DNA of 64,000 nucleotides from a virus (Duplodnaviria > Caudoviricetes): positions 32,001 to 96,000 of the IMG/VR virus record IMGVR_UViG_3300035517_000383, one strand, 5' to 3'. A model generated the notes under the pieces. It had not been told where the DNA came from and searched no databases. It was given only the letters and a program-made list of their open reading frames with translations. The position numbers were made by a program, and so were the translations under genes. Of this stretch, positions 7,154 through 30,227 are shown one piece after another (within the stretch, counting starts at the first letter, position 1; the number at the start of each line of letters is the position of its first letter).

Positions 7154-8632
7154 TTACTGACATAACCATTCTATATTTGTACAATTTTTAAAAGTATACT
7201 TAGAATTCAGTTTTTCTTCATCGGTAATATATGGATAAGAATTTTCATCCGTATAATTATATAAATAATCAGTAGTTACTATTCCATTTTCTTCAGGCTT
7301 TCTTGCCGCATAATTTCCTCCTGAACCAATATCTGGTGGTAAATATAATAAAGTAGTATTATCATCTTTATCTGGTTCTATTTGAGACTATAAATATTTT
7401 ACACTTCTTAAGTTACCACAATTTGAAAAAGCTTCTGTATCTACCACTGTTAAACTAGTACATTCTGTAAAATCTATTTTATTTAAGCCTGCTGAATTAT
7501 AAAAAGCCTTTTCTCCTATTGTTTTTAAACTAGAAGGAAATACGGTATATCCTTCCTCATTTTTATCTATATTAAGTAGAGCAAGGTTAGACATTTCTGC
7601 AAAAGCATATTTACCTATTTTTTCTAATTTAGGAGAATTAATAGTAATTTCACCACTTATACCACTTCCATAAAAAGCATAGTCACCAATTTCTTTTACA
7701 GAAGACGATATAATAATACCATCAGTAGCATTTACTATGTTTGCAAAATATTCTATAGTTTCTATTGTATCTGAAATTACAAGTTTTCTCATAGTTCCAG
7801 CAGTAAAACATAAGGTTATATCATCTTCATCATTAATAGATGGTAAAGAGGAAGGAGTTATACCGTCTCCAATACCAAGATAATATGAGGAAGATTTATA
7901 TTCATCTTGTGAAGAAAAATATTTAATATTATCTTCCGTTTCTCCATTCAACCAGAAACCAGATTCATCAGCATTATAATAAACCAATCTAGCTGAAATA
8001 CAATTGAATAAATATAATTTATTTTCTATTTCATAATAATAACCCGTTCCTAGTTCCAAAGAAAAATCTGAGCCGCCGCTATTATCTTGAAAGCCTACAA
8101 TTTCACAAGAACCAGCTATATAAACTTTATAACATTCTTCTCCTGATTCTAAAGTAATTATTTCATTATTATAATTTGTCTCTTCTTGTTTCTTTATCAA
8201 TACATAAATTCTTCCAGTTGAATCAATTTGATAATAAATAGTATTCTCATCAACTTCGTGTCCTAAATTTTTCATATATTCTCTAGCAATAGAATTTAAA
8301 GTGTCAATATCCAAAGAAGAAGTATAAGTATTATTATCATCATCTGTGTTATAAATAATAACCAAATCTTTCGAAGAAAAACCTTCTGGAAAAGAACCAT
8401 TAATTATAGTTGGAATTTCTGGAAGTTCTTCTTCTATTTTTTTAATATATTGAAGATATATTGTTTTTATATCTTCTAAATCCATATAAGTAGCTTTAAT
8501 TGTAATAGGCGTTTTTTCATTATAAGTATCATAGTTATTATTATTTGAATCTGTTACAATATTACCAGTCTTATCCGTTATATTTTTAATATCTTTTTTT
8601 TCAAAAATAATTTTATTTTCTTGAATCTTCAC
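7154..8632 (-). CDS. BspA-type leucine-rich-repeat protein, probable virion/adhesion protein (1 TAG)
   Basis: Repeats VKEIGDYAF, LEKIGKYAF, LKTIGEKAF, VDTEAFSNC; frame continues past TAG 7388 to TAA 7154. Confidence 0.75.
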
Positions 8633-8645
8633 TAAATATCACCTC

Positions 8646-10190
8646 TTAGTTAGCTAAAGAATTATTCCAACAACTAGGTATTTCACCTAAATAATATTTT
8701 GTTATTCCATTGTCTAATTTTATATCTTCATATGAGGTATTTGTATTTTTTTCAGAGCCGTATTCTGTTTTTGAAATTGCTACAGTTTTTTTATGATTAC
8801 TGCTATTCAATTCATTTAAATCTTGTGCTGTAAAACTAACGATTTTAGTATTGCTACCTGTTAATGATTCAACAGCATCATATCCATTTAATTCAAATTT
8901 AGTAATATTAATCTTGTCAACATCTACTGTAGCTTCTATTTGAGGAACAATTCTTATTGCACTATAAAATTTTTTAGAACCTTTTTCATCGGATATCTTA
9001 CTTAAAGCTTTAGCTGCACTAATATATCTATATCCATAGTCTTCTTCTCTTGCCGCCGCTAGCTTTGATAAATATTCTGATGGTTGAAAACTAATCTTCT
9101 AAGTATTACCGAGAGTAATATATGTCCAAGTCTCTTGTCCTCTATGATAAAAGAAGATATAAGGATAGTATTCTTTATTATAATAATTATGCTTATAATT
9201 TCTAGCTTTAATTATAGGAAGAATAACCAAATTTGTTTTATTATATTTATCTGCTAAGAATTTAATCCTTTCTAAAACTACATTTGCCGCAATATAACCT
9301 GTATCAAAATTATCGTATTTTTTTTCCAATGAAACTTTTGATATTGGCAATGGTATAACTTCTATGCGAACTTCTGTACAAAATTTCTAAGATTCTATTG
9401 CTGTTGCCGCCCAAAGAAATAAAATGTTTTCCCATAACTAAGAAACTTCGTCAAATAGCTTCTTAAACATATCGGGAATTGGAGCATCTTCATCAAACAA
9501 GTACCCACAAATTACTCCCAAAACCTAAGCAATAACCCAGAAATTTCTATTTAAATCTTCAATTTCAACTCTACGTGTATTTTTAGGCATTATTAAACGT
9601 ATCCACTGATTTATAGACCACTCTGAGGTATCTATAGTTTCAAGAGTTCCATCCTCTTTTCTATAATTAACTTCTTTTGGCATTCGTGTAAACTAAAGAT
9701 TTAAAGGGTTTTTAAGAACACTTAAGGTTTTATCATTTCCGCGTATTTGTATATAACTATTTAAATTAATATTTTTCCATGGTCTGACCCACTCTTCTTT
9801 AGAAAAATTTCGTCCAGCGTCAGCATTTTTTATATCAGCTTTTGTTGCCCATTCCGCACCCTGAATTACACTGTTATCATTTTCTTCTGAATTATCCAAG
9901 TACTTATAAAAATAATTTATTGCTGTTTGAACCGATTCATTCCAAAAACCGTTGACATCTGTCTTATTCTTAAAATTTTCAATATCAACCTAATCAATAT
10001 CACTGTTATTTTCAATAAATTCCATTAAACTATTTTCTTCAAATAATGATTGTATTTCTAGAGAATAGTTCTTCATGTATTGCAAAAAATTCTTCCATGC
10101 GGCCGCACGTTGTTCTGGAGATAATTTTAAAACTTCACTTAATTTATCTTTAGAATTTTCAGTAGTAAATAGTGTTTTTATACTATTCAA
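8646..10190 (-). CDS. large probable virion protein, paralogue C (514 aa, TAG=Gln)
   Basis: ORF pieces 9990, 9693 and 9099 share one frame, separated only by TAG; shares the WIRLIMP..EDLNRNFWV..LWENIL block with paralogues A and B. Confidence 0.75.
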
Positions 10191-10205
10191 ATTAACTCAC
10201 CTCCC

Positions 10206-13200
10206 TTACTTTACGTTGTCATACCAATTAACATTATAACTATTCGTATCATCATTATTCGGTATGTATAAGCCATTACTTTTAAATTTTTCCCAGTTGT
10301 AGCCACTATAATTATTATACCATACCTTATAATCTGTTCTCATAAGGTCAACATTACTAATTTCTCGCTCTGTTGCCTTTACCCATTTTCCATAATTTGT
10401 AGTACTAGGGGTGCCGCCTTGTCTAATCCAAACTCTTTGTGCAAATTCACCATTAGCTTTAAATACTGAAATTGTAACTTGGTCAGTTAGATTTAGGAAA
10501 GGATATCCGTTATTTTTAATAGCAGTATATATATCATAAGCAATTGGATTACTTTCTTTAAATGAACTAATATAAGTATCTGTCAATGTTTTTCTTAAAG
10601 CAGTATAAGAACTAATCCACCAGTCATTATTATTTAAGATATTATTAGAGTCATAAACAGTTTTAGAATTACGATTTGCAGCACTTAATTCTAAATATGT
10701 TCTTTCTGTAAAATTAAAATCTGATTCTGCATTAGTATATAAACGAGTATAAGCGCCAATACCAACATCAATGTGAGTAACGCACCAATTGTCTTTTGTA
10801 AGCCTTGTGTCTCCATCTTTTAAAAGTAATAAAAGCTGGCTGAATTGATTGCCGCCACCAGAGCCTGTTCCCTTGTAAGATGTAATTATATTTTTTCCAT
10901 CTTCATTTTTTGTTTCAAAAACAGATGCAAAAGTGGCAAAATTACTACTAGAATTAGAATTGGTATTGTAATAATCCTTATAATAAATAGAATTATAATT
11001 TCCTACCTTTAATACACATCCTGCCGCAAAACCATATGAATTTCCACCATAATTCTTTAGTTCCAGCTGCTTTAATTCTCCATTTTCAATAACCCAGTAT
11101 TTATAAATATTTGTGTCACTGCCATTTAAATTATATTGTACGCTATGGTCACCATAAAATAATTGTATTAAATTGTTTTTATGTTCAATATAATCACTAT
11201 TAATATAAGCTTCTAAAACAGCCTAATCTGATTTTTGCTAATTTGAAGTTGTATAATTTGCCTTTAAATCATCTAATGAACTAAATTCATAGCTATTGCC
11301 AAGTTGTAAAGGAATTAATTTTAAAGAAGAAAAATTTAAAGTATAGGTTAAAGTATTGGTTACTTTATAATAACTAATCAATTCTCCTTGATAATAACCC
11401 TAAGAAATATCTACTGAATTAATTTCATCATATGAATCTGGGGTAAAATTCCCGTCTTTAATTGTTAAGGTTGCATTAAGATAATTAAATTCTTTTACTA
11501 AATTTTCGTCTTTTCCTATTAACTATCTACCTATATCTTTAATATAAATAGTCAATGAATTAAGCTAAACTTCCTATTTTTCCTCAGAGTAAGAAGATTC
11601 AATTAAAATTTCTTCTCTAAGTAATCCATAAAAACGTCTAGGAGTTTCTTCATAGAAACTACTATTTAAAGGAGAATAATAATCATAAATACTTTCTTGC
11701 TCATTAATTGCATAGATTTTATTTTGTAGCGTTTCATCAGTCGCCAAATCTATATTCCAAAAAGAACCATCAGAAATCAATGGTATTTCAGTTTGCCACT
11801 TATCTGTGTTCCTGTTATATAATAATACATAAGGATAAACAGATTTACTATAATAATTCTCCTCGTAGTTATTTTCTCGAATAATTGGTAAAATACAAAG
11901 ATTGCAGTCTGTATAAGTTTTTACTAAATAATCTAATCTATTCTTTAACGTTGATAAGTCTTCCGTTTTAGTGTTATCAAAATTATCATATTTAAAAAAG
12001 GATTGAAATTCTGAATTTGGAATATATACAGCCTCTGTATGAATTTTTGAATAGTGAGGTTTTTCTATTAAAGATGCTAAATTAGCCCAAAGATATAATA
12101 TATTTTCCCACAATTGTACTACTTCACTTAATAGGTCTTCCGCCGCCTTAGCGTAGGGAGCATTATCTCCGAATAAGTAGCTGCTTACTGCCGCGAGTGT
12201 CTAACCAATAACCCAAAAATTTCTATTTAAATCTTCAACTTCAACAAATCGAGAATTTTTAGGCATAATTAAACGAATCCATTTTTCTAAAAAGTTAGAT
12301 TTCCCTTGTTCTAATTTTTTCTCTTCTTGTTGATTTAACTCATTTTTATCTATATTATTTAAAGATGAATCTAATTCTATATCTTTATAAGTCTTTGCAT
12401 TTAGCTCTTTGCTATAATCATCTTCTAATTTTTTTAGTTCTTCATGAGACATTTTTTTATAATAATCTTTTAAAACCCAAATGTTATTAGTATAATCACA
12501 AAAATATTGAGATAATAAATTCTATTTAATCTAATAGTCTAAACCAGTAATATCACTATAAGGTTGTCGAGTAAATTGTAATTCTTCTTTATTAGAAAGC
12601 ACCTCTTCAATTTTATCATTACCTCGTACTTTACTATATGAATCACCATTAACATTATACCATGGTACTACCCACGGATTTATAACTTCATAAATTGTTT
12701 TATTTTTATATTTTATAGGATATTCCCTTAAGGTTCTGTTTTCTGAAACAAAATTTTTTCCTGCGTCTGCCTCTTTTAAATCTGAAATTCTAAAAGATGT
12801 ACCATTATTATCTTCTATAGTTGTATCTATAGCTCCAAAAAGTAAATCTGAAATTACATTACCATTTTCATCTACATAAATACCAGCAGGAATTTCTTCT
12901 TTTGTATTAGGATTAACCCATTTCTAGTTTTCCCATGCCGCAATACCATCTGGGTCTATATTATTAATAAAATTTACTAAAGCTTTACTTAAAGATTCAT
13001 TCCATACATAGTCAGTCACATTTGATGTAAATCCCGTTGATGAATTTAAATCCCATTTATCAATTTCTTTTAAATAAAAGTCTTGTATTGAATCAAAAAA
13101 ACCTAATTCGCTATTATCACTATCTTTTAAATCAGCATTCTTGTCTATCGTTTTTATTAAAGAACCATTAATATCTTTCTGAGAAGTTCCATTTGTTATA

Positions 13201-13292
13201 TCAAGAATATTTAGAAGCTCTTCCCATAAAGTTTGTAATTCTTCATTAGAAAAATCATCTACAGAACTATTCATCAATTCTTCATATGTCAT
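10206..13292 (-). CDS. large probable virion protein, paralogue B (1028 aa, TAG=Gln)
   Basis: ORF pieces 12924, 12201, 11574 and 10206 share one frame; the junctions checked are TAG; same conserved block as A and C. Confidence 0.75.
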
Positions 13293-16200
13293 TCAATTTC
13301 ACCTCCCACATTTTTAGGTAAGCTTCTAAAATCAAAATTTAAACTATAGAAGCCTTCAGGACTTTCAACCCCGTATTCTTTCATATTCTCTTTTGTATAT
13401 GACCAATATGCAGTATTACCATTAAGTTTATTTATTAATTGTTTTCCACCAATAAATTCTCCAGAAATTTCACCATCTACAATTTTATATTTATAACTAC
13501 ATACATATCTGTTTTCTGGTGTCGTTAATGTAAATGCTCTGTCTATTACTGTTAAATAAAATTCTTTGGAATTAATTTTTCCTGCTTCATCAAAACTAAA
13601 AGTTTCATTGTTAGCATTACATAAAATTGTACCATTATATATTCCGCTAGTAACGGAGTCAACATACGAATTATTAGAATGAGATAAATAAATTCTAATA
13701 TCATTGGGGTTAGGATTAGTTGGTAAATACATAAGGCCAACGTTATTTTCATCTGTATAACGACCAGCAACAGTTTTATTGCTATTATTAGTATATTTAC
13801 CTGAATCTGCTAAATAGCCTAAATATTTTGATATAGGGACTCCCGGCACAGAAGTAACAGCGGGATATATACAATCCGCCTAATCTTGCCAATAGGGGTC
13901 TATAGTTATGCCCTTCCATTTTGGAGCTAAGTTAAAATAGTGCATATCTACTGTTCCATCTCTAAATTTCTTAATTATACCAAGATACTTACAAACTTCA
14001 AAAAGGTTTGATTTGTTTTTTCCATTTTCATCACCTTGGCTCTTTATAAAATATTTAAAAATTAAAATTTTTCCAGTTCCATTTTCTAATTCAACTGCTT
14101 TTTCTTCAAGTTTTTTCTTCATTGTCTCTTCATATTCATACGCTTCTGGATTATAAGCCCCCTCTTCGTACTAGTCTGTTATATCAATTCCAACAAATTC
14201 ATAACTACTACCCAAATCAATTTTTTCCAAAACCTCTGTTAAATAGCTATTACACTCTCCTAAATAATAACCCTTTTCTATCTAAATAGAAGATGCCGTT
14301 ATATCAGCTATATCTGGAAAAATTTCGTTTAAAGAAGTCGTTGAGTCTTTTTCTGAGAAATTATCATTTTGCCAAAGAGCCAAAGTGTTTGAATTATTCT
14401 AAATAAAAAGCTCTCGTGATACATCATAAAAAGCCAAAGTAAAATCTTTAATTTTTATAATTCCATCTTCATATTCAGCTTTTATTGTTGGAATTGTTCT
14501 ATCCGCCGCAAAATAATAACCTCCATTACATTGCTAACGAGTTCCCAATAATGAAGCCTAAAAATTTTGAACAGACTGATAATGGTTATTATACTTTCTA
14601 AAGCCAGAGATTCTTCTTGTTATTCTATCGTTCACATCTGATAAATCAATTTTAGTAGAATGAGAATAGCTTGTATAACAATAAGGGTCTAAACTCTCTA
14701 TTGTATCACAAAATCTTTTCCATCCATCTGGAGTATTTGAATATTCATTATTTTCACAGGCTGCTATAAATTGTAATATATAACTAGAATATATTGCATC
14801 AATTGTTGCGCCGCCGCTAGCATAATTTAATAATTCAATTTGTTTCTTAGTAAGATTTTCTGGGCTTTCCGTTTGAATTTGAGCATAATAAGAAAGCACA
14901 TTATTCGCATCTTCTTTATCTACGATGCCATTATCATTGATATCAGGGAAATATATATATTTAGAACCCTTAACTTCTGAAAAAATAGTGTAAGCAACTT
15001 TATTACTATTTCTATTATAAAAAATAACGCCGGGATAGATAACTGTATTATAATAATTATGTTTATAATTATTAAATCTAATTTCTGGAACTACAACTAA
15101 ATTACTTTCACTATACTAGTCTTTTAAATATTTTAATCTATTCCAACATTTTTCTAAGGTCTATCTTTTTGTCTATTCGTTAATGAAAGTGCTGTCATTA
15201 TCAAAATTATCAAATTTTATATAACTTTGAATTTCATCATTAGTAATAGGCATGAAAATCGTTTGAATATCTGTATATTCTTTTCTTTGTGATAGTGCGG
15301 CAGCAGCAATCCAAAGGAACAATACATTTTGCCATAACTATAAAATTTCATTTAATAAGCCTTTTAATGCTTTTATTAAAGGAGAATCTTCACTAAACAA
15401 ATAAGAACTAATGCCAGATAAAATTTGAGCAACAACCCAAAAATTTCTATCTAAATCTTCTACCTCAAAATGTCTTTGATACATTGGCATAATTAATCTT
15501 ATCCATTTTTCAAAAACATCTTGTCCATTAATTATTTTTTTAGGTATATACATTTTATTATTTTCAGTACTATACAAATACCAACCCTCTGGAGTATTTG
15601 GATATTCACTTTCGATAAAGCTAAGAACCTAAGAAGCATACAAAGCATTTCCACTTTGCTTATTTGCTATGCCACCACCATCAAGTAATAATTGCTCTTG
15701 TTTGCTTGTTAAAGAAGTTTCTTTTCCAGTACCATAATCAGCATAATATTGCTCAATTAAAGAAGCATCATTTTGAGATAAAACTCCATCCCCATCTAAA
15801 TCTGGGAATGCATAAGTAATTATAATTCCTGCTATATCTAAAATAGTTGACACAAGAATACCAGAAGCATCTTCTATTTCATTAATTTTTGCAGAAGAAA
15901 AATCTGAATCAATTAGTTGTTTCAAGTAATTATCAAAATTATCCTTAAACCACTAGATTTTAATTTTTAAAATTTCTTCATATTCCTCATCCGTAATTGA
16001 TATAGATTCTAAATTCTTTTCTATAGCTTTTTCCGCCCATGTCTTAATTTTCTATTCAATATTCTCATCACCATTATTTATATAGAAATAGGGCTTACGG
16101 GTAAATTGAAGATTTTTACTACTTTGTAATGTTGAAGAAATACTATCTTCATCTCTTACTTCTTTATAAGTTTCTAAATCTATATTAAACCATGGCCGCA

Positions 16201-16795
16201 CCCATTTACCATCTTTGTCAAAACTATTTCCAGCATTGCCATTGATGATATCCTAAATTCTAAAAGAAACTTTAGTTCCATTTGAATTAACTCCCATTGG
16301 TATTGCACCACCAGTGTCGCCAGATGAGATTTGTTTATCTGTTGGGTCATTTCCTTCAATTTTTTTAATACTATCAGGAAATAAGTGCTGCAAACAATAA
16401 GAAATTAGCTTACTAACAGACTCATTCCAATAATACTCCGATTCGCTATTAGTTCCATTTAAAGTACTGTTATCAAGATTTTCATTTTTATCTAACTTAT
16501 CAGAAGTATAATATTTTTCTATTAAATCATTTACAATATTATCTAAATCTGCTTTTTCATTAATATAATAAAAAACAGATTTATTAGACATATCGTCTTC
16601 TCGAACTCCGTAATGAGATAAATCAATTTCTTCATTTTTTAAATACTCTATTAAATACTTCCAAAAATTATCTTGTTCTTCCTCACTTAAACCTTGGAAG
16701 GCCGCACCACAGAAATTTTCATAAGTAATTTCGGGATTATCATTGCTATTAATTAATTTATCTATAAGTTCATTAAAAATATTTTGTTGACTCAT
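13289..16795 (-). CDS. large probable virion protein, paralogue A (1168 aa, TAG=Gln), with two dockerin-like inserts
   Basis: Six ORF pieces in one frame joined at TAG; PDLDGDGVLSQNDASLIEQYYA and PDINDNGIVDKEDANNVLSYYA Ca-loop/helix motifs. Confidence 0.75.
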
Positions 16796-16821
16796 TTATT
16801 ATCACCACCTGTGATATTATT

Positions 16822-17124
16822 TTAAAGAGGGTATTTAAATTTTGTTATTATTTCTTTAAAAGTGTCCCAGCCGTACATAGCGATAAAAGCAACAACAAAA
16901 CTACCTACAATTCCTAATAAAATTAATTTTAAACTAAGTGTACAAAAAATTAAAATAAAACCAATAGTTAAAATTAAAGAAATGATTATAACTAAAGCTT
17001 TAGTAGGAAAGCTATTGGGGATAATCTTTTTTAAAACCTCAGTAACAATACTAACTAAAGCTGCAAGTATTCCTATTACTCCTAAAGAAGTACTCGCTGA
17101 AATACCAAAAACAGTTTCTAACAT
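16822..17124 (-). CDS. putative holin (3 TM)
   Basis: Three hydrophobic segments; next to the endolysin; GGAGG RBS favours the ATG at 17124. Confidence 0.65.
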   Translation of the reverse strand: MLETVFGISASTSLGVIGILAALVSIVTEVLKKIIPNSFPTKALVIIISLILTIGFILIFCTLSLKLILLGIVGSFVVAFIAMYGWDTFKEIITKFKYPL

Positions 17125-17237
17125 ATTAACGCCTCCTCTGTAAAATATTGTAATAATTTCAAGAATAAAACCCATTCTTGACCTTTAATAAAAAGTAAAA
17201 AATTAAGGGAAACACTCTAATGTTCCCCTTAATATTC

Positions 17238-18470
17238 TTATTTCTTAACAATTACAGCTTGTATTTTATCAATAGGTTTACCAAAAGAACCTGCATAATC
17301 AGTATCTTGAATTACCCAATCGTAATAGTTCTTTGAAGAAGTTGTTGAAACTCTATATTTAACTTGATATTCGTCACAGTTACTTAATACCATTTGAATA
17401 GCATCAATTTGCTGACTTTTTAATCCAGCACAGCCTATGTTCCAATCATTTATATTATATTTTGTAATCCAGCTAAGCCAGCCGCCATTCTTAATATGAA
17501 CACGATATTTTAAAGTTCCTTTTGTTACTGTTGCGGCAAGTCCACTAATAGCTTTGTTTTCAACACCAGAATATCCCATATCATTTGTATCATTATAATT
17601 TGTAATTTCACTATACCATTTTCCATTAGTATATACTCGATATTTTATATCGGGAACTGTTGTGGAACTAGATGTTGAAGTTGAAGCATTATTACTATAA
17701 ACACTTTTTCCATTTTCATCAAAAACACTATATCCAGTTTTACAAGCTTTCTTTGCGTTTTCAAGAGAGGAATATGCTCCAATTTGAGAAGAAGCATCCT
17801 CCCATGCTTTTCTTACTCTATAAGTAACTGTTTTCGTTGCTGCCGCAGCGACATTTGTAGAATTATTGTTGCCTTTTAACTTATTTAATGCTGTTGAAAC
17901 ATTAGTTTTAAAAGTTGACCAATGCGGCAAAATATAGATGGGACAATTCTTCTTTGAATTCGAAGCAGTATTAAGATAATCAATTGTACCGGTTTTTCCA
18001 TCTTTAACATTAAGCCAATGAGTATGAGTAAATAAATTCTTTTCAACAGTTAAATTGTAAAGATTCAATAAATAAGCAACCAATTTAATAGCATTAGCTT
18101 CTGCTTTAGTAGAATTACCAATTACCTCAATCGCAATAGTCTTTCTATTGCCGTCACCATTTCCATCTGCAGCGTGCCAGCCAGACAAAGTTAAAGGTAA
18201 ACATTGCCAAGCACAAATATCATCTACATAAAAATGTACTCTTACATCCTTCATATTTCCATTTACAGTACTTCTTAAATATTGTTCTGCCATTGTTGTA
18301 CTTGAAGATACTGAAATAGCTTCTGTGTTATGAACCGTTACACCCAAAGGAACAGAAGGAAGATTGGCTGTTGGCATATCTATATTATTAGGATTGTGTT
18401 TAGTAAGTAAATATTCTTTTACTGTCAATCCATTTGCATTATAAGTTTTATCAGGATTTAAAAAACTCAT
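17238..18470 (-). CDS. endolysin, N-acetylmuramoyl-L-alanine amidase (Amidase_2) with C-terminal cell-wall-binding repeats
   Basis: VTVHNT, VHFYVDD, GWHAADG.GN.KTIAIE, THTHW and KNCP motifs; C-terminal YRV..W repeats. Confidence 0.9.
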   Translation of the reverse strand: MSFLNPDKTYNANGLTVKEYLLTKHNPNNIDMPTANLPSVPLGVTVHNTEAISVSSSTTMAEQYLRSTVNGNMKDVRVHFYVDDICAWQCLPLTLSGWHAADGNGDGNRKTIAIEVIGNSTKAEANAIKLVAYLLNLYNLTVEKNLFTHTHWLNVKDGKTGTIDYLNTASNSKKNCPIYILPHWSTFKTNVSTALNKLKGNNNSTNVAAAATKTVTYRVRKAWEDASSQIGAYSSLENAKKACKTGYSVFDENGKSVYSNNASTSTSSSTTVPDIKYRVYTNGKWYSEITNYNDTNDMGYSGVENKAISGLAATVTKGTLKYRVHIKNGGWLSWITKYNINDWNIGCAGLKSQQIDAIQMVLSNCDEYQVKYRVSTTSSKNYYDWVIQDTDYAGSFGKPIDKIQAVIVKK

Positions 18471-18485
18471 AATATATCAACCTCC

Positions 18486-18788
18486 TCAATCATTTAAAAT
18501 ATTTGTTAAACTTTCTATAATTCTAACTTCATTTTCAGTTAGTTCTTCTTGTGTCTAGCTAATTTCTTTTATTGCACCTAAGACAATTTTTATTTTATTT
18601 TCATGTTTTGCTTTATTATAATAAAAACCAGTGGCGGCGGCACATTCTGTAAAAACAGACGGTACTATATAACACAATGGTTCATATGTTTCAAATTTAA
18701 ACATAATAATTCCAGAAAAAATTAATACTATTAAACTTATAATAGAGGCAAAACCTAAAAGAATTTTGGATGTTTCTATAATACTCAC
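18486..18788 (-). CDS. putative holin/membrane protein (1 TAG)
   Basis: Two TM segments and FYYNKAKHENKIK; read-through of TAG 18555 to TGA 18486. Confidence 0.65.
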
Positions 18789-19216
18789 CTCTTAAAAATA
18801 GATATATAAGTCGGTTTTTGTTCTTTAAAAAATTTATATCGAATAAAATCATCTAAAAAAATAACTAAAAAACTAATTAAATACCACAAGATTGAAAAAG
18901 GTAAACATATTTGTCCCTTTATATTAAAAAGTATATTAGAATAATCCCAAACATTCCATTGTAAAATAATATTTACTATTATACCAGTAATAAATTCTGC
19001 TATAGTAATAATTATTGCACCAATTAAACTCTATATTTCTATAAACATATCCCAAGAAAACAAATTATTAATTAATCCAACTAAAACAAAACATAGTCCT
19101 CCGAGAATAAACATTGTCCAATGGGTATGTCCTCTCCATAAAATTTCTATTAAATTATAGCTTGCGCCGCCAAAGAGAAATAAAAATAAATATTTTATAA
19201 TACTTGTAACTTTCAT
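18785..19216 (-). CDS. CmpB/ABC type IV-like membrane protein (1 TAG)
   Basis: EILWRGHTHWTMFILGG, then past the TAG: ITIAEFITG..VWDYS..NIKGQICLPFS family motif. Confidence 0.75.
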
Positions 19217-20016
19217 TACATATTCACTATTTCATTAATAATATCTTGATATTCCTGCTTTAATTCAATACCATATTCAACAGCTTGAATTTCCTGAATA
19301 TCATCCATTTCTAGTATCTAATGTTTCAAAAGATTAAAATAAGTAGTATGATAAATAATCCATGCAGATGCGGCATTAACTAAACCAACAATTTCATCTG
19401 GAGTAAAAACTCTACATACTTCATCGTCTGCGTGATAAGGAACTGATTTACCTTGTGCGGCCAAAGAATAAAGAGTTATTAAATTGATTTGGTCTGTAGT
19501 ATTAAGTCTATAATGCTTTTCATTGTAGTCTATTCCATTAGTAATTGTCGTTTGACTATAAGCCATCATTTCAATAATTTTTTTATTTCTTTCTTCATCT
19601 AAAGAATCGCCGGTTGTCAATTCATCATTCTAAAGATTGTTAATTTCATTTCGAATACCAATTCTATTATACAAAAGCTCAGAAAAATCATATGGAAGTA
19701 CAGAACCTAACATATAACTTTCTATACATTTAATTACCTAATAATCTGTATTTGTTAATTGCTTTTTAAGTAATGAAGTTTTTTCATTTGTAAAACGTAT
19801 TTGTTCATTCCTTTTACTAACTTCAAGCCAAATTTCTTTATTAAGTTCTATATCCTTATCTATATCCTCAGATTTCTGAGTAATTTCATATTCATTATAT
19901 GAGTAAACATTATCTTGGGTCTAAGTAATATTCTCTCTAAAATAAATTTTATAATATTGAGGAACTAATTCTATATATTCCAAGGGTTTAACTTCTTCAC
20001 TAGAATATTTTAACAC
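19216..20016 (-). CDS. DUF4376-like tail-fibre-associated protein (several TAG)
   Basis: GTG at 20016 with GAGGTG RBS; DQINL..YHADDEVCR..TTYFNLL; frame runs to TAA 19216 through TAGs. Confidence 0.65.
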
Positions 20017-20030
20017 TTAAACTTCACCTC

Positions 20031-21401
20031 TTAATAATTTAGATATTCAATTTTTGCATAAGTAAAATATCCGTTACTAGCCTTAATAGTACCTCGTAAA
20101 ACTAAATAATAGTCTCCAAAGTCAACTGATGAAAAAGTTGTTGAAATAGCCAAACCAGATGCACCACCAGAAATATTAAGAGCTTTATATTCAACATAAT
20201 CTTCTGCATCTATCTTTTGTCTTATACTAGCCATAATTTCATCAATAGTATTACCAGAAGCTTTTACTAAGCATAAATTACAATCAGAACTCGTCCAAGT
20301 AGATTGATAAGTTGTTATAAGAATAGCTAATGTATCTGCTTGAATGGTAATTGGAGTAGAAAATGTCATCATATTCTCTGTGGCATTTGAAGTAGACCAG
20401 TTATCCATTTGAATACCATACTTTCTTTCTTCTGGTGCTATGTAAGAATTAACCGTACCTATACTACCATATCTATTATTCTGCTGTTCTAGAGAAGCAA
20501 ATTGAGTATTCTCTGTTTCAGAGATATAAATTGTTTTTCCATATGTATTTAAGGTTTCTTCTGGGGACGAGAAAGATGTGGTATCTAATAATACTTGACT
20601 ATAAACACTTCCTGAAGACTCGCTTGAATAAGTTCCTGTAACTCCCCAAATTGTTACTCCTTTTTTAATATTACTTGCTATAAAATTTTCGTCACCTTGA
20701 ATTGTAAAGGTTTTTTGTCCCTCACAAATTACTGGTCCTTGAATTATCTAATCAACATCTGTCGGAATATAAATTTCATCAGCAATTGACTTAGCTATAC
20801 CAACAACTTTTGCACCATTAATAAACGCAACCATTCCCTCTTGAACGTTAGAAGAAGAAGCTGTTTTATTTGATAATTCTGTTGTATCAATCAAATTGGG
20901 ATTTGTACCAACAATTTTCTCTCCATTAACATAGGCGGAAGTTCCATAAACAAGGTCTGCTGACGTTGCAGTTGCATCAGAAGTGTCTAATCCTTCTATA
21001 GAACCTTTATAAGAACCATCTACCTCAAAAATAGTTATTCCATCTTTGATATTTTCTGGAACTAAATTCTCATCACCTTTAATAGTTTGTTTACCAGCAA
21101 TGTAAATTCCAGAGCTAATAGTTTTATCAATAGTTGAAGGTACAATAGTTTGTTCTTCTTGTGACAAGATTGTCCCTACTATTTTCTCATTATTCACATA
21201 GGCAATTTTATTAAGTAAAATATCATTTTCTGTTGCTGTTCCATCAGTAGTATCAATTCCTGTTTCTATTTCTAAAACTTTTGGAACTAAAGAATTAAAT
21301 TTTTCCGTGACTTCTGCGGCAACCCCTTTAGCATTTAAGTTTTCCGCTAAAGATTCTTTTTGCTTTTTTAGTTCAATTAATTTTTCAGAAATTGTAGACA
21401 T
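20031..21401 (-). CDS. tail fibre-like protein (1 TAG)
   Basis: Repeated TATxxDxxxGxxAYVNGEKIVGT and IKGDENLVPENIKxGxTIxxVxG units; 20748 and 20031 ORFs are in the same frame. Confidence 0.7.
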
Positions 21402-22690
21402 TAATCACTCACCTCAACTAAAGTACTAAGTGCTAAATCTATATCTCCTAAAATTTCATCTATATATTCTTTAATTATTTTATTTTGAACAGGATTTTCA
21501 CTAGTATCGCTAATTGCAGAATCTACTACAATTACAGTATCGCTTCCTTCTCCGTCTTTACCATTTACCACATTAAAAGTAGAAGAAGTATTGTCGCTAT
21601 AATTAATAGTATAAGTATCTGTTGCTCCCGCAATTCCCGCATCTTCGCCATGAGTACTGGAAGTAAAATTAATTGATATAATTCCTCTACCGGTGTCACC
21701 TTTTAACCCCTGTTCACCTTGTGGACCTTGTTCACCAGTATCACCTTTATCACCCTATGGACCAGTTTCACCTTGTAATCCTTGAATACCTTGCTCACCT
21801 TGTGGGCCTTGCTCACCCTGTTCACCCTGAGGACCCTGAGGACCTTGTTCACCAGTATCACCTTTAGGACCTGTTTCTCCAGTGTCACCCTTGGGACCTT
21901 GTTCACCTTGCAATGATTTTAGCCAATCCGTCTCTGTTCCCTCAAAACCATTTTCAACAGCAACTTCATAAGCGGATTTTCCATTTTTAATTATAGAGGT
22001 GTCTATTTCAACCTAATCTGTATCAGGATTGTATTTTAGACCATAACCAATTTTTATACCACCGAGTATATCTTCCGTTGCTTGCGGCAACGTATAAGTT
22101 GTTCCAGTCCATTCTAAAGCTGTTTCAATGTTAGAAGATGAGTTTCCAGTAGTATAATATACTGAACTCCATTTATAGGGATATACAGAAATAGAAGTGG
22201 CATCACACCAATATATATATTGTCCACCACTACCTTTAGTGATTTGTACTTGAATTTCTGCCGCCTAAGTAAGTTGGGGGTCTATATCTGTAGAAGCTGG
22301 GGGATAAATATTACCAGTAATAATAGTATTAACGGGAAGATTTAAGCTATTAACTTCACTTAATATAGTTTGTAAGTCCTTTCCAGTGGTTGTAATCCCT
22401 AATTCTGAAAAAGTAACAAAATTATAATTTCCATCAATAGCATTTAATATGTAAGTTAAAGCTTCTTCAACATTAGAAGCAACTGAAGAAGTATAAGCTA
22501 TATCTTTAGAATCAAATTTAATAATATCTCCTACGTAACTTTTTACACCGTTTAGATTCTGCTGAAGTTTATAAGATACGATATTATTTTCTTCTAATTT
22601 TACAATACTATATCTAATTAATTCAGAACTTCCTGTGCCGCCACCAGAACTACCAGAACCATTACCAATAAAAGGATTAAAAAATTCCAT
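21401..22690 (-). CDS. collagen-like tail fibre protein (2 TAG)
   Basis: After TAG 22265: [41 protein letters not shown], then a Gly-X-Y run, ending at TAA 21401. Confidence 0.8.
21692..21909 (-). repeat. collagen Gly-X-Y coding repeat
   Basis: [24 protein letters not shown]...; 9-nt periodicity. Confidence 0.85.
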
Positions 22691-22702: not shown

Positions 22703-22987
22703 TTAAATGATATAATATATATCGCCAGAAAAACCAGAGTCAAAGACTAAGGAATTAATTCTTTGGTGACGTTCAGTAGTATATGGTGTAATAAAATATC
22801 CACACTGAGGTATTTTTAAGGTATTGTCCCCATTAATTGTAAATTCTAACCCAGTTGCTCCTTCAAAACCAACATAATCAAGATAAAAAGGACTTTGGTA
22901 TAATCCTTTTTCTTTTAAATCTTTTTCAATTAGTTCAACAACATTCTCTCCTGCTGGCGCGCCGCCACTGTACATTCTATAATTCAT
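22703..22987 (-). CDS. hypothetical protein
   Basis: ORF with GGAGG RBS. Confidence 0.65.
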   Translation of the reverse strand: MNYRMYSGGAPAGENVVELIEKDLKEKGLYQSPFYLDYVGFEGATGLEFTINGDNTLKIPQCGYFITPYTTERHQRINSLVFDSGFSGDIYYII

Positions 22988-22988
22988 A

Positions 22989-23255
22989 TTATCCCTCCTT
23001 TATTTCATCAGCGATATTAGAAAATATTTCTCTTAATTTTATTTCATCTTCGGAATTAGTTATTCTTATTTCAATTGGAGTTTCAAATTTCATCCCCAGA
23101 CTGAGTACTCCAACTAAACTTTTTCCATTAATAACTTTTTCATTCTATATAATAAAAACTGAACCTTTAAGTTCATTTAAAGCATAAACTAAATTAGTTG
23201 CTATACGTCCATATACATCGTTTTTTAATTTATATCTAATAGATATTAAATCCAT
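22989..23255 (-). CDS. HPr/Crh-like protein (Tyr15, Arg17, Ser46; 1 TAG)
   Basis: 88 aa, MDLISIRYKLKNDVYGRIATNLV...VINGKSLVGVLSLG, colinear with HPr numbering; absent from the ORF track because of the TAG at codon 37. Confidence 0.8.
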
Positions 23256-23286
23256 TTTATAATCATCTCCAGAAAATTAATATAAG

Positions 23287-23350
23287 GGAACTGTATTCCG
23301 CAAGCGGAATACAGTTCCGATTGCAATTTCGCTACGCTACATTGCAATCG
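23287..23350. promoter_or_regulatory. two adjacent GC-rich hairpins at the divergence point of the two gene arms
   Basis: GGAACTGTATTCCGC-AA-GCGGAATACAGTTCC perfect stem, then CGATTGCAAT..ATTGCAATCG. Confidence 0.55.
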
Positions 23351-23474
23351 TCTATTTTTAACTCTCTATATTAAAATTATATCACTCTCTTATGCAAAAG
23401 TCAACATTTTAAATAAATAGTTCTATTGCTTGACTTTTTCATATCAATATGGTATAATATTTATAAAGAGGTGA

Positions 23475-24416
23475 ATGAGAATGACATCAGAATTAACAAA
23501 TAAAATTGAACACTTTAATCTAGATTTAGATTATTCAAATCCATTATTTAATTCTCTTGAAACACAAACAAATCAAATTATTAATTCTATATTAAATTTA
23601 TATTTAATACAATTTAAGGATAAAAAGAAAATAATTCTTGAATATCAAGATGATTTATTAAGTGTAATTACTTATCGTATTTTAAAAAATATTTGTGCCA
23701 TAAATGAGTTTGAAATTTTTATTTATGGAAAGAAAAAGAAAACTAAAACTTATATTGAAAAGAAAGATAAGAATATCTCTTTAAGAAAAATTAATAAAAT
23801 TATAAAAAAAGAAAAGCAAGATATTTTATATGTATCTTGTTTTAATCCTATTTATAAAGTAATAAATAGTAAAAAAGTCTTTAATGTTTTCCAATGTGAT
23901 ACATATAATCCAATTGCGAATTTTACCCCAGATGAAATTCATATGACACAAGTATTTTATCATATTGGATATATAAAAGATGAGATTAACTTTACAAGTA
24001 GTATAATAAAAGACTATTCTTTCTTTTGTGATAGTATATATAATATGAGTTCAGATATTGATATATTTTTAAGTAATTTCTTATATCCTATTCCAAATGA
24101 AATAAATCTTATTTGGTTGTGCGGCGATGAGAAAATTGATGAAGAGGAGTTAAAAGAAATTCAAAACACAAAAGGTATGAATTTTTATTTCTATCAAGAA
24201 GAACCATCTATATTTAAAAGTTATTTTTCTCTATATCTATCTAATAAATCAAATATTCCAAATAAAAATTTTGGAAATATTAATAACTATCAACTTGTTA
24301 ATGAATTTATTAAATTCCTTGAAAAGAGAAAAAAAGAGAAAAATATTAATTATACAATTAATTGGATAGGTAAATGGGATAATATCATTAAAAATAAAAT
24401 TCTAATGGAGGATTAA
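23475..24416 (+). CDS. hypothetical protein
   Basis: 313-aa ORF after a TTGACT-17-TATAAT promoter and GAGGTG RBS. Confidence 0.65.
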   Translation: MRMTSELTNKIEHFNLDLDYSNPLFNSLETQTNQIINSILNLYLIQFKDKKKIILEYQDDLLSVITYRILKNICAINEFEIFIYGKKKKTKTYIEKKDKNISLRKINKIIKKEKQDILYVSCFNPIYKVINSKKVFNVFQCDTYNPIANFTPDEIHMTQVFYHIGYIKDEINFTSSIIKDYSFFCDSIYNMSSDIDIFLSNFLYPIPNEINLIWLCGDEKIDEEELKEIQNTKGMNFYFYQEEPSIFKSYFSLYLSNKSNIPNKNFGNINNYQLVNEFIKFLEKRKKEKNINYTINWIGKWDNIIKNKILMED

Positions 24417-24417
24417 A

Positions 24418-24930
24418 ATGAAAGTATTTATAGTAAATGGTTGTGGCGGCAGCGGCAAAACGAGTTTTGAATTAATGATACGTGATATTGCAGAAGCACA
24501 TGGAGAAAAAATTAAAATTCTCTCTATTATTGATTATGTTAAAGATGTAGCAACTTATTTCGGTTGGTCAGGAGAAAAATCTTTAAAAGGAAGAAAGATG
24601 CTATGTGACCTAAAAGATGTTATGACAGAATATAATGACATTCCATATAAACAGTTAGTAAAACAAATTGAAGAATGTAGAGATGATAATATATCTGCTG
24701 TTTTTATTGATAGTAGAGAAGCAGAAGATATTAAAAGACTGGTAGAAGATTTTCATGCTCTTACAATTTTAGTGCGTCGCGACGCAGAAAGAATTATTTA
24801 TGGCAATAGAGCAGATGATAATATAGATAATTATGAATATGATATTATTATTGATAACAGTAGAGGTTTAAGTGAATTATTAGAGGAAGCTTCTATATTC
24901 TATGAAACCTTTATTAAGGAGGAAAATTAA
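24418..24930 (+). CDS. P-loop nucleotide (dNMP) kinase-like protein
   Basis: NGCGGSGKTS Walker A; FIDSRE; YDIIIDN. Confidence 0.65.
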   Translation: MKVFIVNGCGGSGKTSFELMIRDIAEAHGEKIKILSIIDYVKDVATYFGWSGEKSLKGRKMLCDLKDVMTEYNDIPYKQLVKQIEECRDDNISAVFIDSREAEDIKRLVEDFHALTILVRRDAERIIYGNRADDNIDNYEYDIIIDNSRGLSELLEEASIFYETFIKEEN

Positions 24931-25764
24931 TTGACTTTTAATGGTTCAAAAAATAAATTTAAAAATGATATACCGCCTATAATTAATAAATATATAGAAA
25001 AAAATGATATAAAAGTTTTTATTGATTGTACTTGTGGTGGGGCTAATTTAACAGATAAAATTGTTTGTAAGGATATTTATGGTATCGACTTGTCACCAAG
25101 CTTAATTGCTTTACATCTTCAAGCTCAACAAGATTTTTCTCAAATTCCAACAGATGGGAGTAGAGAAATGTGGGATAAAGGCTATTCTGCTTGGAAAGTT
25201 ATGAAACAGATTTTAGATACAAAACCTTTTGCTGATTTTACTATTGAAGATTTTGATAAAATCAGTATTCCTCTCTATCAAATTGGTTGTATTGAATGGT
25301 ATGCAAGTTTTTCTAACAGAGGATTTCCAGGTGGGTATGCAAAAAATTCTACAACAAGAAATTATTATCAAGAAGCTTGGAGAAATCATAAAAAGCAGAG
25401 TGAAACAGATAATTATAAGAAAATAAATTTTTGTTGTGGTGACTATTAGGATTTAGTCTCACAAATATTAACAAAAGAAGAAAATCTAAATCTTAATATA
25501 CTTTTGTATATTGACCCACCATACAAAGACACGAAGCCTTACGCCATTTCAAAAGATTTTAATTACGAGAGATTATATGAGTGGCTAAATAATATCAGTA
25601 AAATTTGTCCCATTTTTGTAAGTGAACAATATTTACCCGAAGAATTTAATAAATATCAAGTTTGGGAAAAGAAAACAAAAAGAACAATAGGTTTAGATAA
25701 TAATTACTCAGCAAAAGAAAAACTTTGGTTAATAGATAAAAGAAATATAAATAAGGAAAATTAA
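24931..25764 (+). CDS. DNA adenine methyltransferase (1 TAG)
   Basis: FNGSKNK and DCTCGGAN SAM motif joined in frame across TAG 25447 to YIDPPY. Confidence 0.82.
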
Positions 25765-25794
25765 AAAAGAAAGTAATTAATAGGAGGATTATAA

Positions 25795-26763
25795 TTGAAA
25801 GTAATAGAATTATTTGCGGGAATTGGTGCACCAAGAATGGCACTAAAAAATTTAGGAATACAACATGATGTAATTGGAATTAGTGAAATAGATAAAAATG
25901 CTATTAAAATGTATAATATGATTCATGGAGAAACAAATAACTTTGGAGATATATCTCAAATAGAAAAACTCCCTTATTGTGATTTTTTACATTTTTCTTC
26001 TCCTTGTCAGAGTTTTTCTCAAAGCGGCAAGAAAAATGGATTAGAAGGTTCAAGTGGTATAATTGTAGAAGTGTATAGATTAATGGATAATTTATATGAA
26101 CGCAAAGAGCTACCGAAAGCTATTTCTTTTGAAAACGTACCTACTCTATATACTAAATTTCGAGATGTTTTTGATGATTTAATAGAACGTTTTAAAAATT
26201 GGGGATATAATGTTTATTACAATACCTTATCGGCACAATATTTTAATAATCCTACTGCTAGAAGTCGTTTATTTATAATAGGAATTAGAAAAGATTGTGA
26301 CACAGGAACATTTATAATGCCTCAAAATACTAATTTAACAAAAATAAGACTAAAAGATTATTTAGTTGATAATGTTGATAAAAAGTACTACTGGCCGCAT
26401 GAGGTAATCTTTCATAGTTTAAATGACAACGAAGAAAAAATAGATACTACTAGAAAACTTGGTTGGCTAGAGACAGCTTGTGGACATGAAACTCAGAGTA
26501 ATAGAGTTTGGAGCAAAGAAGGATTTTGTCCTACTATCACTTGTTATTCACAATTTCTAATCAGAGAAGGGTCAGGTGTGTATAGAAAATTAACTGAGGA
26601 AGAATATTGGAGAATTCAAGGATTTTCTCAAAATGATTTTGAAAAAATTCAGAAAGATTTTTCTAGGTCAGCAATTATTAAAGCAGTAGGAAATTCTATT
26701 GCATTAGGGCCTCTTGAAGCAATTTATTCTAATCTCTTTTCTTCTGTTCCTTCTTTGATTTAA
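25795..26763 (+). CDS. DNA cytosine-C5 methyltransferase
   Basis: ELFAGIG, SPCQSFS, FENV, RSRLF and GNSI motifs. Confidence 0.93.
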   Translation: MKVIELFAGIGAPRMALKNLGIQHDVIGISEIDKNAIKMYNMIHGETNNFGDISQIEKLPYCDFLHFSSPCQSFSQSGKKNGLEGSSGIIVEVYRLMDNLYERKELPKAISFENVPTLYTKFRDVFDDLIERFKNWGYNVYYNTLSAQYFNNPTARSRLFIIGIRKDCDTGTFIMPQNTNLTKIRLKDYLVDNVDKKYYWPHEVIFHSLNDNEEKIDTTRKLGWLETACGHETQSNRVWSKEGFCPTITCYSQFLIREGSGVYRKLTEEEYWRIQGFSQNDFEKIQKDFSRSAIIKAVGNSIALGPLEAIYSNLFSSVPSLI

Positions 26764-26850
26764 AAACTAAATTTTAAAATGACGGCAATGCCAATTGCCG
26801 GCACAACTCTTTTGATTACTTTTCTCGTTGCTGAGAAAAGTAATACTATA

Positions 26851-26954
26851 TAATATCGTAAATTACGGAACATAATATCGTAAATTACGGAACATAATAT
26901 CGTAAATTACGAAAAGCACTATCGTGAATTACGAAAGTTATATCGTAAATTACG
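26851..26954 (+). repeat. iteron-like array: five copies of TATCGTRAATTACG at 22/22/22/21-bp spacing
   Basis: Cores at 26854, 26876, 26898, 26920 and 26941; each holds the near-palindrome CGTAA-A-TTACG. Confidence 0.85.
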
Positions 26955-27014
26955 ATTCCGAAATTTTTATAGATATTTTTTTCGTAATTTACTTATAGTA
27001 TAGGAGGTGGTTAA

Positions 27015-27770
27015 ATGATAACCAACAAAGAAATTAAAGGTCGAGCAATTTTTAGTGATGAAGAACAAATAAAAGAAAGAAGCTTGAAGATTTATACTTA
27101 TTTAGTCTGTATTAGTGGATTAAAGGATAATTATAATCATGTTCGAATTTTTCAGCAAAAAGATGTAAATCTTTCTGATATTAAAAGAACTTTTCATATG
27201 GATGAAAGAACAATTAAACGATATTGGGAAATGCTTGAATTAGAAGGTTTAATAGTATATAACGGATTTTTTAAAGAAGATTTATCACTATCTTTTAAAG
27301 AACGCTGGAAAATTAGGAATAAAAATAAAAATGTTTATTATGAGATTCCTACACCACCAAAGTTTAGAAAAATTCCAAAAGAAACTTTAATAGAATTAAA
27401 TTAGAAGAGAAATATTGATGAATTAACTTTTAAAATTTATATGACATTGATTAATTATCAAGAAGCTTGTATTAACAATGGAAAAAGTTATAAACCATTT
27501 ACCTATCAAGATTTAAGAGAATTATTAGGATACAAACTTCATGATGATATAGATAAAAAAATGGAGACATCTTTGAATCAATTACAGGGTTTAGGTTTAA
27601 TTATAATACGTCGAGATGTTATGTTAAATAAATTTGGAGTAGCGATTCCGGTATTTGTATTAGAGCAAGCTAATTTTTATACAAATTTTGATATTAAAGA
27701 TTTTGAAACTGCGGAAGAAGAAGTGATTGAAGAACCTGAAAGACAACTAATTAAGGAAAATCTTAAATAA
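27015..27770 (+). CDS. Rep-like/winged-helix DNA-binding protein (1 TAG)
   Basis: 27015 and 27441 ORFs are in frame across TAG 27402; two wHTH-like segments (ERTIKRYWEMLELEGLI; LNQLQGLGLI); directly downstream of the iterons. Confidence 0.55.
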
Positions 27771-27896
27771 AATTAAAACGTTATATTAAAAACTATAAAT
27801 GGTTTTAGAAATTTTTCTTTAATTTTTACTATAATAACTTGACAATTTTCTTATCTTATGATATAATATTAATATAATAGAAAAGGAGTGACATAA

Positions 27897-28439
27897 ATGA
27901 TTATACTATGTGATGTAGACAATATAGTAGGAAATCTCGTCGAAGCAGTATTATCAGTTTATAATCAAGACAGCGGCGATAATTTAAAACTTACTGATAT
28001 AACTAAATATCATATTGAAAATTTTGTTAAACCACAATATAAAGATACTTTCTTTCATTATTTTTTGGATAAAAGAGTTTGGAAAAGGATGGGACTTGTA
28101 CCCAGTGTACAAAAATATATGAGTAAATTATTCAACGATGGACATGAAATTTATTTTTGTACTAAAACTGAAATGAAGAATGCCCCAAAGAAAGAATCTT
28201 ATCTTCAAAGAATTTTTCCTTATATTGATATAAGAAAACACTTAATTATTTGTTATGATAAGAAAATGATTAAAGGTGATATCTTAATTGATGATTGTAC
28301 TAAAAATTTTGGAGGGCAAAAATATTCTATCTGTCTTGCTTATCCTTATAATAAAGATTTTATCGATGATGGAATGTATAATTTTAGATGTAATAACTGG
28401 GAAGAGATTTATAACATTATTTCCAACTTAGAAAAATAA
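27897..28439 (+). CDS. 5'(3')-deoxyribonucleotidase (HAD, NT5C-like)
   Basis: CDVDN, K..IKGDILIDD, YPYN. Confidence 0.8.
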   Translation: MIILCDVDNIVGNLVEAVLSVYNQDSGDNLKLTDITKYHIENFVKPQYKDTFFHYFLDKRVWKRMGLVPSVQKYMSKLFNDGHEIYFCTKTEMKNAPKKESYLQRIFPYIDIRKHLIICYDKKMIKGDILIDDCTKNFGGQKYSICLAYPYNKDFIDDGMYNFRCNNWEEIYNIISNLEK

Positions 28440-28517
28440 GTTCTCTTGACTAGTTCTGCGAAATGAGGTATAATATTGGTAGAATAAAAAAGAAGAAGAG
28501 AAAAAGGAGGAAGGGTA

Positions 28518-28987: not shown

Positions 28988-29014
28988 TAAGTAATAAGAC
29001 AAAAGGAGAATTTT

Positions 29015-30145: not shown

Positions 30146-30227
30146 AACATTAGAGAGTTTTTGTTAAAATTTCACTTTATATTGAGGAAGAGGTAGATGA
30201 CTACCTCTTTTATTTTTATTTTGTGAG

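Follow-up and report, generated by a model that had tools for sequence, protein, structure and literature searches.

Introduction

The reading of TAG as glutamine instead of stop (genetic code 15) is already established in gut phages. It has been described in gut and animal phages that include Lak, crAss-like, and several Firmicutes-infecting clades (10.1101/2021.08.26.457843; PMC6784885; PMC9523058), with a bias toward late genes (10.1101/2021.08.26.457843), and for crAss-like phages it has been proven by proteomics (PMC9523058). In phAss-1, a large gut Caudoviricetes of the proposed "Phassvirus" group with a genome of ~136 kb, a tape measure gene, and a predicted Clostridia host, TAG codons occur in the terminase, tape measure, and portal genes, and tRNA-Sup-CTA genes are present with no dedicated synthetase (PMC10607447). 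Here, we follow up a sequence-only reading that proposed TAG to encode glutamine in a 64,000-nucleotide stretch of a Caudoviricetes phage (IMG/VR record IMGVR_UViG_3300035517_000383). This stretch, referred to below as the window, covers bases 32001-96000 of one 152,102-bp contig with 30% GC and an estimated completeness of 92%. That reading had likened the case to the code 15 of gut phages, a comparison that holds (10.1101/2021.08.26.457843; PMC9523058; PMC6784885). The phage clearly adds one more case to a recoding known in gut phages, and the gain is incremental.

The phage is siphovirus-like, as seen from its tape measure, Dit, and portal genes, and it belongs neither to the Crassvirales nor to the Lak phages; it is an uncultured gut phage with a host that is probably a member of the Firmicutes and probably Ruminococcus. 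It shares with the code 15 gut phages a low GC content, TAG as glutamine, structural and lysis genes rich in TAG, an early block poor in TAG, a tRNA with a CUA anticodon, and a host that presumably uses the standard code. What differs from the known cases is the lineage, which is siphovirus-like with genomes of ~150 to 180 kb and direct terminal repeats in the relatives; the lack of an RF2 gene, which the Lak phages have; a suppressor tRNA with a long extra arm, C33, and a G3·U70 pair; and a putatively indirect route of charging. By description, phAss-1 is like this phage in size class, tape measure gene, host prediction, TAG-bearing genes, possession of a suppressor tRNA, and lack of a dedicated synthetase, but it has 28 to 36 tRNAs with 2 to 3 suppressors, whereas the present genome has seven tRNA genes, one of them a suppressor. 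The recoded gut phages gain from it a siphovirus-like lineage that probably infects Ruminococcus.

Coding capacity with TAG as a sense codon

Under translation table 11, the minus strand of the window between 8646 and 16795 is split into approximately 12 open reading frames (ORFs) of 66 to 186 amino acids (aa) each. With TAG as a sense codon, the same region holds three ORFs, which encode paralogue 1 (P0001, 8646..10190, 514 aa), paralogue 2 (P0002, 10206..13292, 1028 aa), and paralogue 3 (P0003, 13289..16795, 1168 aa) and carry 6, 10, and 14 in-frame TAG codons, respectively. In the window, coverage by ORFs counted from stop to stop (100 aa or longer) is 77.3% under table 11, 90.6% with TAG as sense, and 80.3% in a control with TGA as sense. 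A gain in coding density under code 15, proposed as a check of the sequence-only reading, was also found over the entire contig, where the coverage by greedy ORFs rises from 69.5% (table 11) to 88.7% (TAG sense), compared with 73.3% in the TGA control, and the mean ORF length is 180, 274, and 177 aa in the same order. The fusion of ORFs and the gain in coverage are far beyond chance. The TAG-sense set of the contig comprises 164 predicted genes, of which 73 contain in-frame TAG (288 codons in total); all 164 terminate in either TAA (130 genes) or TGA (34 genes). Annotation with table 11 loses or fragments approximately one-fifth of the coding capacity of the genome, and the affected genes include those for the portal, tail and lysis proteins, a sigma-like factor, and Mom. 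Table 15 is required for annotating the phage and its 150- to 180-kb relatives.

Amino acid at TAG positions

The relatives are represented by 78 IMG/VR phage loci that surround the portal gene, with portal identities of 60 to 84% in one group and 30 to 33% in a second. All predicted proteins, with X at every TAG, were compared with these loci by tblastn, and an aligned cell was accepted if at least 5 of 10 flanking residues were identical and no gaps were present. This yielded 1250 cells opposite TAG, including 151 in which the relative also has TAG, and left 1099 informative cells. Glutamine is by far the most frequent residue among them (579 cells), followed by Lys (86), Glu (72), Arg (51), Asp (50), Leu (39), Ser (26), Tyr (24), and Ala (23). 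This profile matches those of the genome's own CAA and CAG codons (44% and 56% Gln, respectively) and is unlike the profiles of its Leu, Ser, Tyr, Lys, Glu, and Trp codons. For a likelihood test, substitution profiles of all 20 residues were derived empirically from these alignments, and each of 49 positions had one vote. Gln scored best at TAG, 65 natural-log units of likelihood above the runner-up, Lys, and it holds the majority at 26 of the 49 positions. The reciprocal comparison shows the same pattern, with TAG codons of the relatives falling on 5.7% of the Gln positions of this phage and, for every other residue, on less than 0.7% of its positions. The relatives have essentially no in-frame TAA or TGA (7 cells in total).

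The three paralogues, which share 38 to 39% pairwise identity, provide a comparison within the genome. The sequence-only reading had set TAG against CAA in paralogue columns, and this was borne out in a codon-level alignment, in which the two codons stand opposite each other in three invariant-motif columns: L-Q-FTR, FWV(I/V)x-Q, and E(V/I)x-Q-LW. Paralogue 1 has TAG in all three, as L[TAG]FTR (9684-9698, TAG at 9693-9695), FWVIA[TAG] (9525-9542, TAG at 9525-9527), and EVS[TAG]LW (9432-9449, TAG at 9438-9440). Paralogue 2 has TAG in FWVIG[TAG] (12201-12218, TAG at 12201-12203), with CAA in LQFTR and EVVQLW, while paralogue 3 has TAG in EIL[TAG]LW (15332-15349, TAG at 15338-15340) and CAA at the FWVVAQ and LQFTR columns; all of these motifs lie on the minus strand. 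One more TAG-versus-CAA column is found outside the invariant motifs, and in variable stretches TAG stands opposite assorted residues and is uninformative. Among 12 related genomes, Gln occupies 13 to 15 of 16 cells at the FWVxxQ column and 11 of 15 cells at the ExxQLW column.

Three further motifs with TAG lie on the plus strand of the window. EYDGI[TAG]H (31252-31272, TAG at 31267-31269) is part of a 138-aa gene product (31081..31497), and in its column (gene g63081_63497, position 63) 34 relatives have Gln and 4 have TAG. IY[TAG]ATN (36957-36974, TAG at 36963-36965) lies in a Mom-family gene (36825..37718; PF25680) that has 7 in-frame TAG codons as called here. The Mom protein of phage Mu (PDB 8bv8) has VYQASN aligned to this motif, with Gln at the TAG site, and since Mu is a standard-code phage, it serves as an anchor outside the recoded clade. 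ALD[TAG]AS (61059-61076, TAG at 61068-61070) is found in a gene of 241 aa with 3 in-frame TAG codons (60816..61541). A pattern search recovered all eight strings quoted in the sequence-only reading, either where it had placed them or next to those positions; for ALD[TAG]AS the string is in place, but the assignment to a family is unconfirmed, as a Pfam search with the gene product matched no family. Collectively, the paralogue columns, the likelihood tally, the columns of the phage's own genes, the reciprocal pattern, and Mu Mom support TAG as glutamine. They show that TAG is a sense codon here and that it has taken the place of Gln codons in evolution. The phage very probably (about 95%) uses code 15, with TAG read as glutamine and only TAA and TGA as stops.

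Suppressor tRNA and its probable charging route

A tRNA search of the window found none, consistent with the earlier remark that no suppressor tRNA was recognizable there. The companion remark on release factors extends to the entire genome, in which no gene with the release-factor domain (PF00472) was found. Code 15 phages often, though not always, encode a CUA suppressor. A tRNA with a CUA anticodon elsewhere in the genome, suggested as a check, was located by ARAGORN and Rfam 4.4 kb upstream of the window (contig C1:27510-27603, corresponding to L001:7510-7603; minus strand). This tRNA(CUA) is 94 nucleotides (nt) long including an encoded CCA and matches the Rfam tRNA model RF00005 with 47.7 bits (E value of 2.6e-8). 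It is part of an array at 25.7 to 27.9 kb of the contig that consists of Leu-CAA, Leu-UAA, Met, Ile-GAU, the CUA tRNA, Lys-UUU, and an interrupted tRNA. It carries the Gln-like pair U1-A72 as well as G2-C71 and G10, and its D arm, of the Gln/Glu type, has G18G19 and a stem of 3 bp; the anticodon stem has 5 bp. The nearest neighbors of tRNA(CUA) among ~250 tRNAs of the clade are tRNA-Gln(UUG), and U1-A72 is present in 12 of the 13 distinct CUA tRNAs of the clade. The classical Gln-inserting amber suppressor, supE of Escherichia coli, is a tRNA-Gln with a CUA anticodon that is charged directly by glutaminyl-tRNA synthetase (GlnRS), and the two tRNAs have the CUA anticodon, U1-A72, G2-C71, G10, and the 3-bp D stem in common.

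The endolysin gene (17238-18470, minus strand) is free of TAG, and its best cellular homologues, at 53 to 62% identity, are found in Ruminococcus callidus and other Ruminococcus/Oscillospiraceae; from this similarity, Ruminococcus is the likely host. The complete genome of R. callidus, searched with the GlnRS-type C-terminal domain PF03950, gave no match, and it contains two GatB matches. The same search matched control genomes known to have GlnRS and missed those known to be without it. In a host without GlnRS, a nondiscriminating glutamyl-tRNA synthetase (GluRS) puts Glu on the tRNA, which is then amidated to Gln by GatCAB, and GatCAB reads U1-A72. Because the likely host has GatB and no GlnRS-type domain, the suppressor tRNA would be charged by transamidation of Glu-tRNA, in contrast to the direct charging of supE, and recognition of U1-A72 by GatCAB would explain the near invariance of this pair in the suppressors of the clade. 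The phage offers a concrete case for the question of how a suppressor is charged with Gln where the host appears to be without GlnRS.

Several points weigh against the reading of TAG as glutamine by this tRNA. The anticodon loop, CCCUAAA, carries C33 where nearly all tRNAs have U33, and the variable region is class-II-like, with ~23 nt forming a 6-bp stem and a GAGA loop, rather than a short one of 4 to 5 nt. Further, tRNA(CUA) has G3·U70 and A73, not the G3-C70 and G73 of bacterial tRNA-Gln. It differs in all of these features from supE, which has G3-C70, G73, U33, and a short variable loop. A second suppressor is possible in the part of the genome missing from the ~92% complete contig, and the gene set consists of greedy non-overlapping ORFs over the whole contig that were called with no trained gene finder. 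The host was assigned from the endolysin similarity, and the search for GlnRS covered one genome and one Pfam domain.

The closest relative (82% portal identity) encodes a homologue of tRNA(CUA) at L140:4451-4590, which is also counted among the insert-bearing tRNA genes described below. It was found in identical copies in four separate metagenome assemblies, shares its first 29 nt with the tRNA of this phage, and has G3-C70, G73, and U33. Comparison of the two sequences identified 8 pair-preserving double changes, of which 1 is in the anticodon stem, 3 are in the stem of the extra arm, and 4 are in the T stem. These paired changes suggest that both tRNA genes and the extra arm are under selection as structure, and we infer that the long extra arm is functional. 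Two pattern scans of IMG/VR found the long-arm suppressor in two species only, this phage and the nearest species; the other matches were rejected as a chance match in coding sequence and an unrelated tRNA read as Glu(UUC). A literature search, which was incomplete and may have missed an earlier report, found no description of a long-arm Gln-type suppressor.

A conserved leader of ~70 nt has only two copies in the genome, both on the minus strand: the one at C1:27605-27680 immediately precedes tRNA(CUA), and the one at C1:27935-28010 immediately precedes the interrupted tRNA-Gln(UUG). The pattern points to common regulation of the two Gln-type tRNA units or to their origin by tandem duplication. 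In the same array, a weak match to an HDV-like ribozyme (RF02682; C1:25841-25911, L001:5841-5911; minus strand) scored 31.6 bits (E value of 0.0034), which is below the Rfam gathering threshold, and begins exactly at the 3′ end of tRNA-Leu(UAA). Theta (HDV-like) ribozymes adjoin phage tRNAs with the cleavage site next to the tRNA (PMC10879173). The candidate is in the position of a theta ribozyme, but it adjoins tRNA-Leu(UAA) and not the suppressor.

Alternative readings of TAG

The alternative that survives best, although improbable, is that TAG is decoded as Glu or as a mixture of Glu and Gln, from a suppressor that is glutamylated by a nondiscriminating GluRS and poorly amidated by GatCAB. 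The presence of GatB and the lack of a GlnRS-type domain in the likely host are compatible with it, and Glu is among the commoner non-Gln residues opposite TAG. In addition, the D arms of the suppressor and of a tRNA from another phage (L118) show no mismatch over 21 nt; the anticodon loop of the latter, at a locus that was misparsed by ARAGORN, can be read as UUC (Glu). However, Gln exceeds Glu by 8:1 in the aligned cells and by 69 natural-log units in the per-position likelihood, the share of Glu equals that at ordinary CAA and CAG codons (~9%), and the GatCAB determinant U1-A72 is kept in all but one of the clade suppressors.

Somewhat less probable still is a partial or complete reading of TAG as alanine in this genome. 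G3·U70 and A73 are the identity pair and discriminator of AlaRS, and their recognition as major identity elements reportedly goes back to work of Hou and Schimmel and of McClain and Foss, both in 1988. Both are present in tRNA(CUA), and the change to them is recent because the closest relative has G3-C70 and G73. Against this, Ala is rare opposite TAG (23 of 1099 cells), TAG occupies invariant Gln columns of the paralogues, and the first pair of the tRNA is U1-A72, whereas tRNA-Ala has G1-C72. The base at issue also comes from a single contig and could be an assembly or population variant. Minor mischarging with Ala may occur in this one genome.

The possibility of real stops at TAG, in a region of decayed or naturally fragmented genes, draws on the many short ORFs under table 11, but is refuted by the alignments: they extend across the TAG sites between conserved flanks, the relatives have CAA or CAG there, and the frames are interrupted by TAG only. 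Essential genes, such as that of the portal, would be broken under such a reading, and a dedicated CUA tRNA is encoded. Pyrrolysine, brought up by the ARAGORN label "tRNA-Pyl" that is given automatically to any CUA anticodon, can be dismissed, as tRNA-Pyl has a 3-nt variable loop, a 6-bp anticodon stem, and a small D loop without G18G19, whereas in tRNA(CUA) G18G19 is present, the anticodon stem has 5 bp, and the extra arm is long; TAG, moreover, is aligned with Gln and not Lys.

Distribution of TAG and a possible order of translation

The use of TAG is uneven along the genome: most of it falls in the genes for virion and lysis proteins, and the early block has almost none. The early block (4.8 to 39.1 kb of the contig), which holds the tRNA array and RNA-repair genes, has 0.84 TAG per 1000 codons, and TAG makes up 3% of its Gln-type codons. 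The replication and nucleotide-metabolism block (window 22855..61541, plus strand) has 2.6 TAG per 1000 codons (8% of Gln-type codons), and most of its large genes are free of TAG. The virion and lysis block (window 7154..22690, minus strand), which includes the genes of a BspA-type leucine-rich-repeat (LRR) protein, the three paralogues, the endolysin, and tail-fibre-like proteins, contains 41 in-frame TAG codons, or 8.0 per 1000 codons (23% of Gln-type codons). The highest density, 11.4 per 1000 codons (25% of Gln-type codons), is found in the tail and head block at 93.5 to 150 kb of the contig. Among the TAG-bearing genes, PHROG and Pfam matches identify Mom, a Dit-like protein, tape-measure pieces, and tail-fibre-like proteins, as well as the portal with 5 TAG, a sigma-factor-like protein with 11, and a second lysin, which is GH25-like, with 12.

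This distribution is consistent with a model in which the early genes would be translated under the standard code of the host. Phage tRNA(CUA), most likely charged with Glu by the nondiscriminating GluRS and then amidated to Gln by GatCAB, would accumulate and out-compete host RF1 at UAG, and the TAG-bearing late genes, such as the sigma-factor-like gene, the portal and tail genes, and Mom, would then become translatable.

A TAG codon is located 1 to 3 codons ahead of TAA or TGA in three early or replication genes of the low-TAG blocks (window 35842-35856, window 42490-42498, and contig C1:13642-13974). The enrichment is mild, with 3 seen against ~0.7 expected in these blocks. Such near-terminal TAG codons may act as stops under the host code, with the nearby second stop as a backup once the suppressor is active.

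tRNA-shaped inserts and RNA-repair genes

In twelve distinct tRNA genes of the clade, an insert of 45 to 73 nt interrupts the anticodon loop at 32/33, 34/35, or 35/36. One is the interrupted tRNA-Gln(UUG) of this phage (C1:27810-27935, L001:7810-7935; minus strand), 4.1 kb before the start of the window. The others are in relatives, at L121:3506-3632, L121:5294-5426, L122:6536-6654, L126:2209-2335, L128:1782-1915, L130:4340-4461, L130:5158-5291, L133:4429-4562, L135:6363-6510, L137:6310-6444, and the L140 locus of the suppressor homologue. For each insert, exactly one splice register yields a canonical 7-nt loop together with an insert that ends in NCCA and has paired ends, the first 7 nt pairing at 6 to 7 of 7 positions with the 7 nt just before NCCA. 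The inserts form an acceptor-like helix of 6 to 7 bp and a 5-bp hairpin with a 7-nt loop, followed by NCCA. The register, the NCCA end, and the end pairing suggest that each insert has the shape of an acceptor stem and T arm with CCA. Tiny introns that resemble tRNAs have been published, unexplained, for tRNAs of Lak phages (PMC6784885).

The spliced anticodons are CUA (4), UAA (5), UGG (1), UUU (1), and UUG (1), so that 4 of the 12 insert-bearing tRNAs, all in relatives, are amber suppressors. The same register rule corrects several automatic labels. "Ser-cga" and "Leu-caa" in relatives are CUA suppressors, and the ARAGORN call of a "tRNA-Stop(tta)" at 27810-27935 is a register error, as the sole register with a canonical loop and NCCA gives tRNA-Gln(UUG). 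An ochre suppressor (UUA) was also rejected on the grounds that TAA is the main stop (130 of 164 genes) and that in-frame TAA or TGA is essentially absent in the relatives.

Upstream of the window, the stretch C1:12165-25439 is free of TAG and encodes RNA-repair-type proteins beside the tRNA array. Its genes encode a BrxL-like Lon ATPase (12165-13601), an Rnl1-like RNA ligase (16711-17835), an AAA_33 kinase-like, possibly Pnkp-like, protein (18800-19720), an Rnl2-like ligase (20564-21562), and a DUF2828/DUF7788/VWA protein that is possibly Ro-like (23988-25439). RtcB (PF01139) was looked for in the genome and is absent.

It is conceivable, though on balance doubtful, that the structure and processing of the suppressor control the code switch, with the long arm, the mini-introns, RNA repair, and charging by GluRS and GatCAB acting as a timed gate for the late genes. 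This proposal draws on the compensatory changes that preserve the arm in two species, on the CCA-ended mini-introns in the relatives, and on the genes for Pnkp-like, Rnl1-like, and Rnl2-like proteins in the TAG-free part of the early block.

The paralogue family

Pfam and PHROGs searches with the three paralogues matched no family. Their common conserved core comprises WIRLIMP, EDLNRNFWV, LW.N.L.LW, YDNFD, and NY..NYY. Homologues are present in 12 of 15 related genomes, six of which have two matches each. The paralogues are likely host-recognition or virion surface proteins, and the gene that adjoins them (7154-8632, minus strand) encodes the BspA-type LRR protein.

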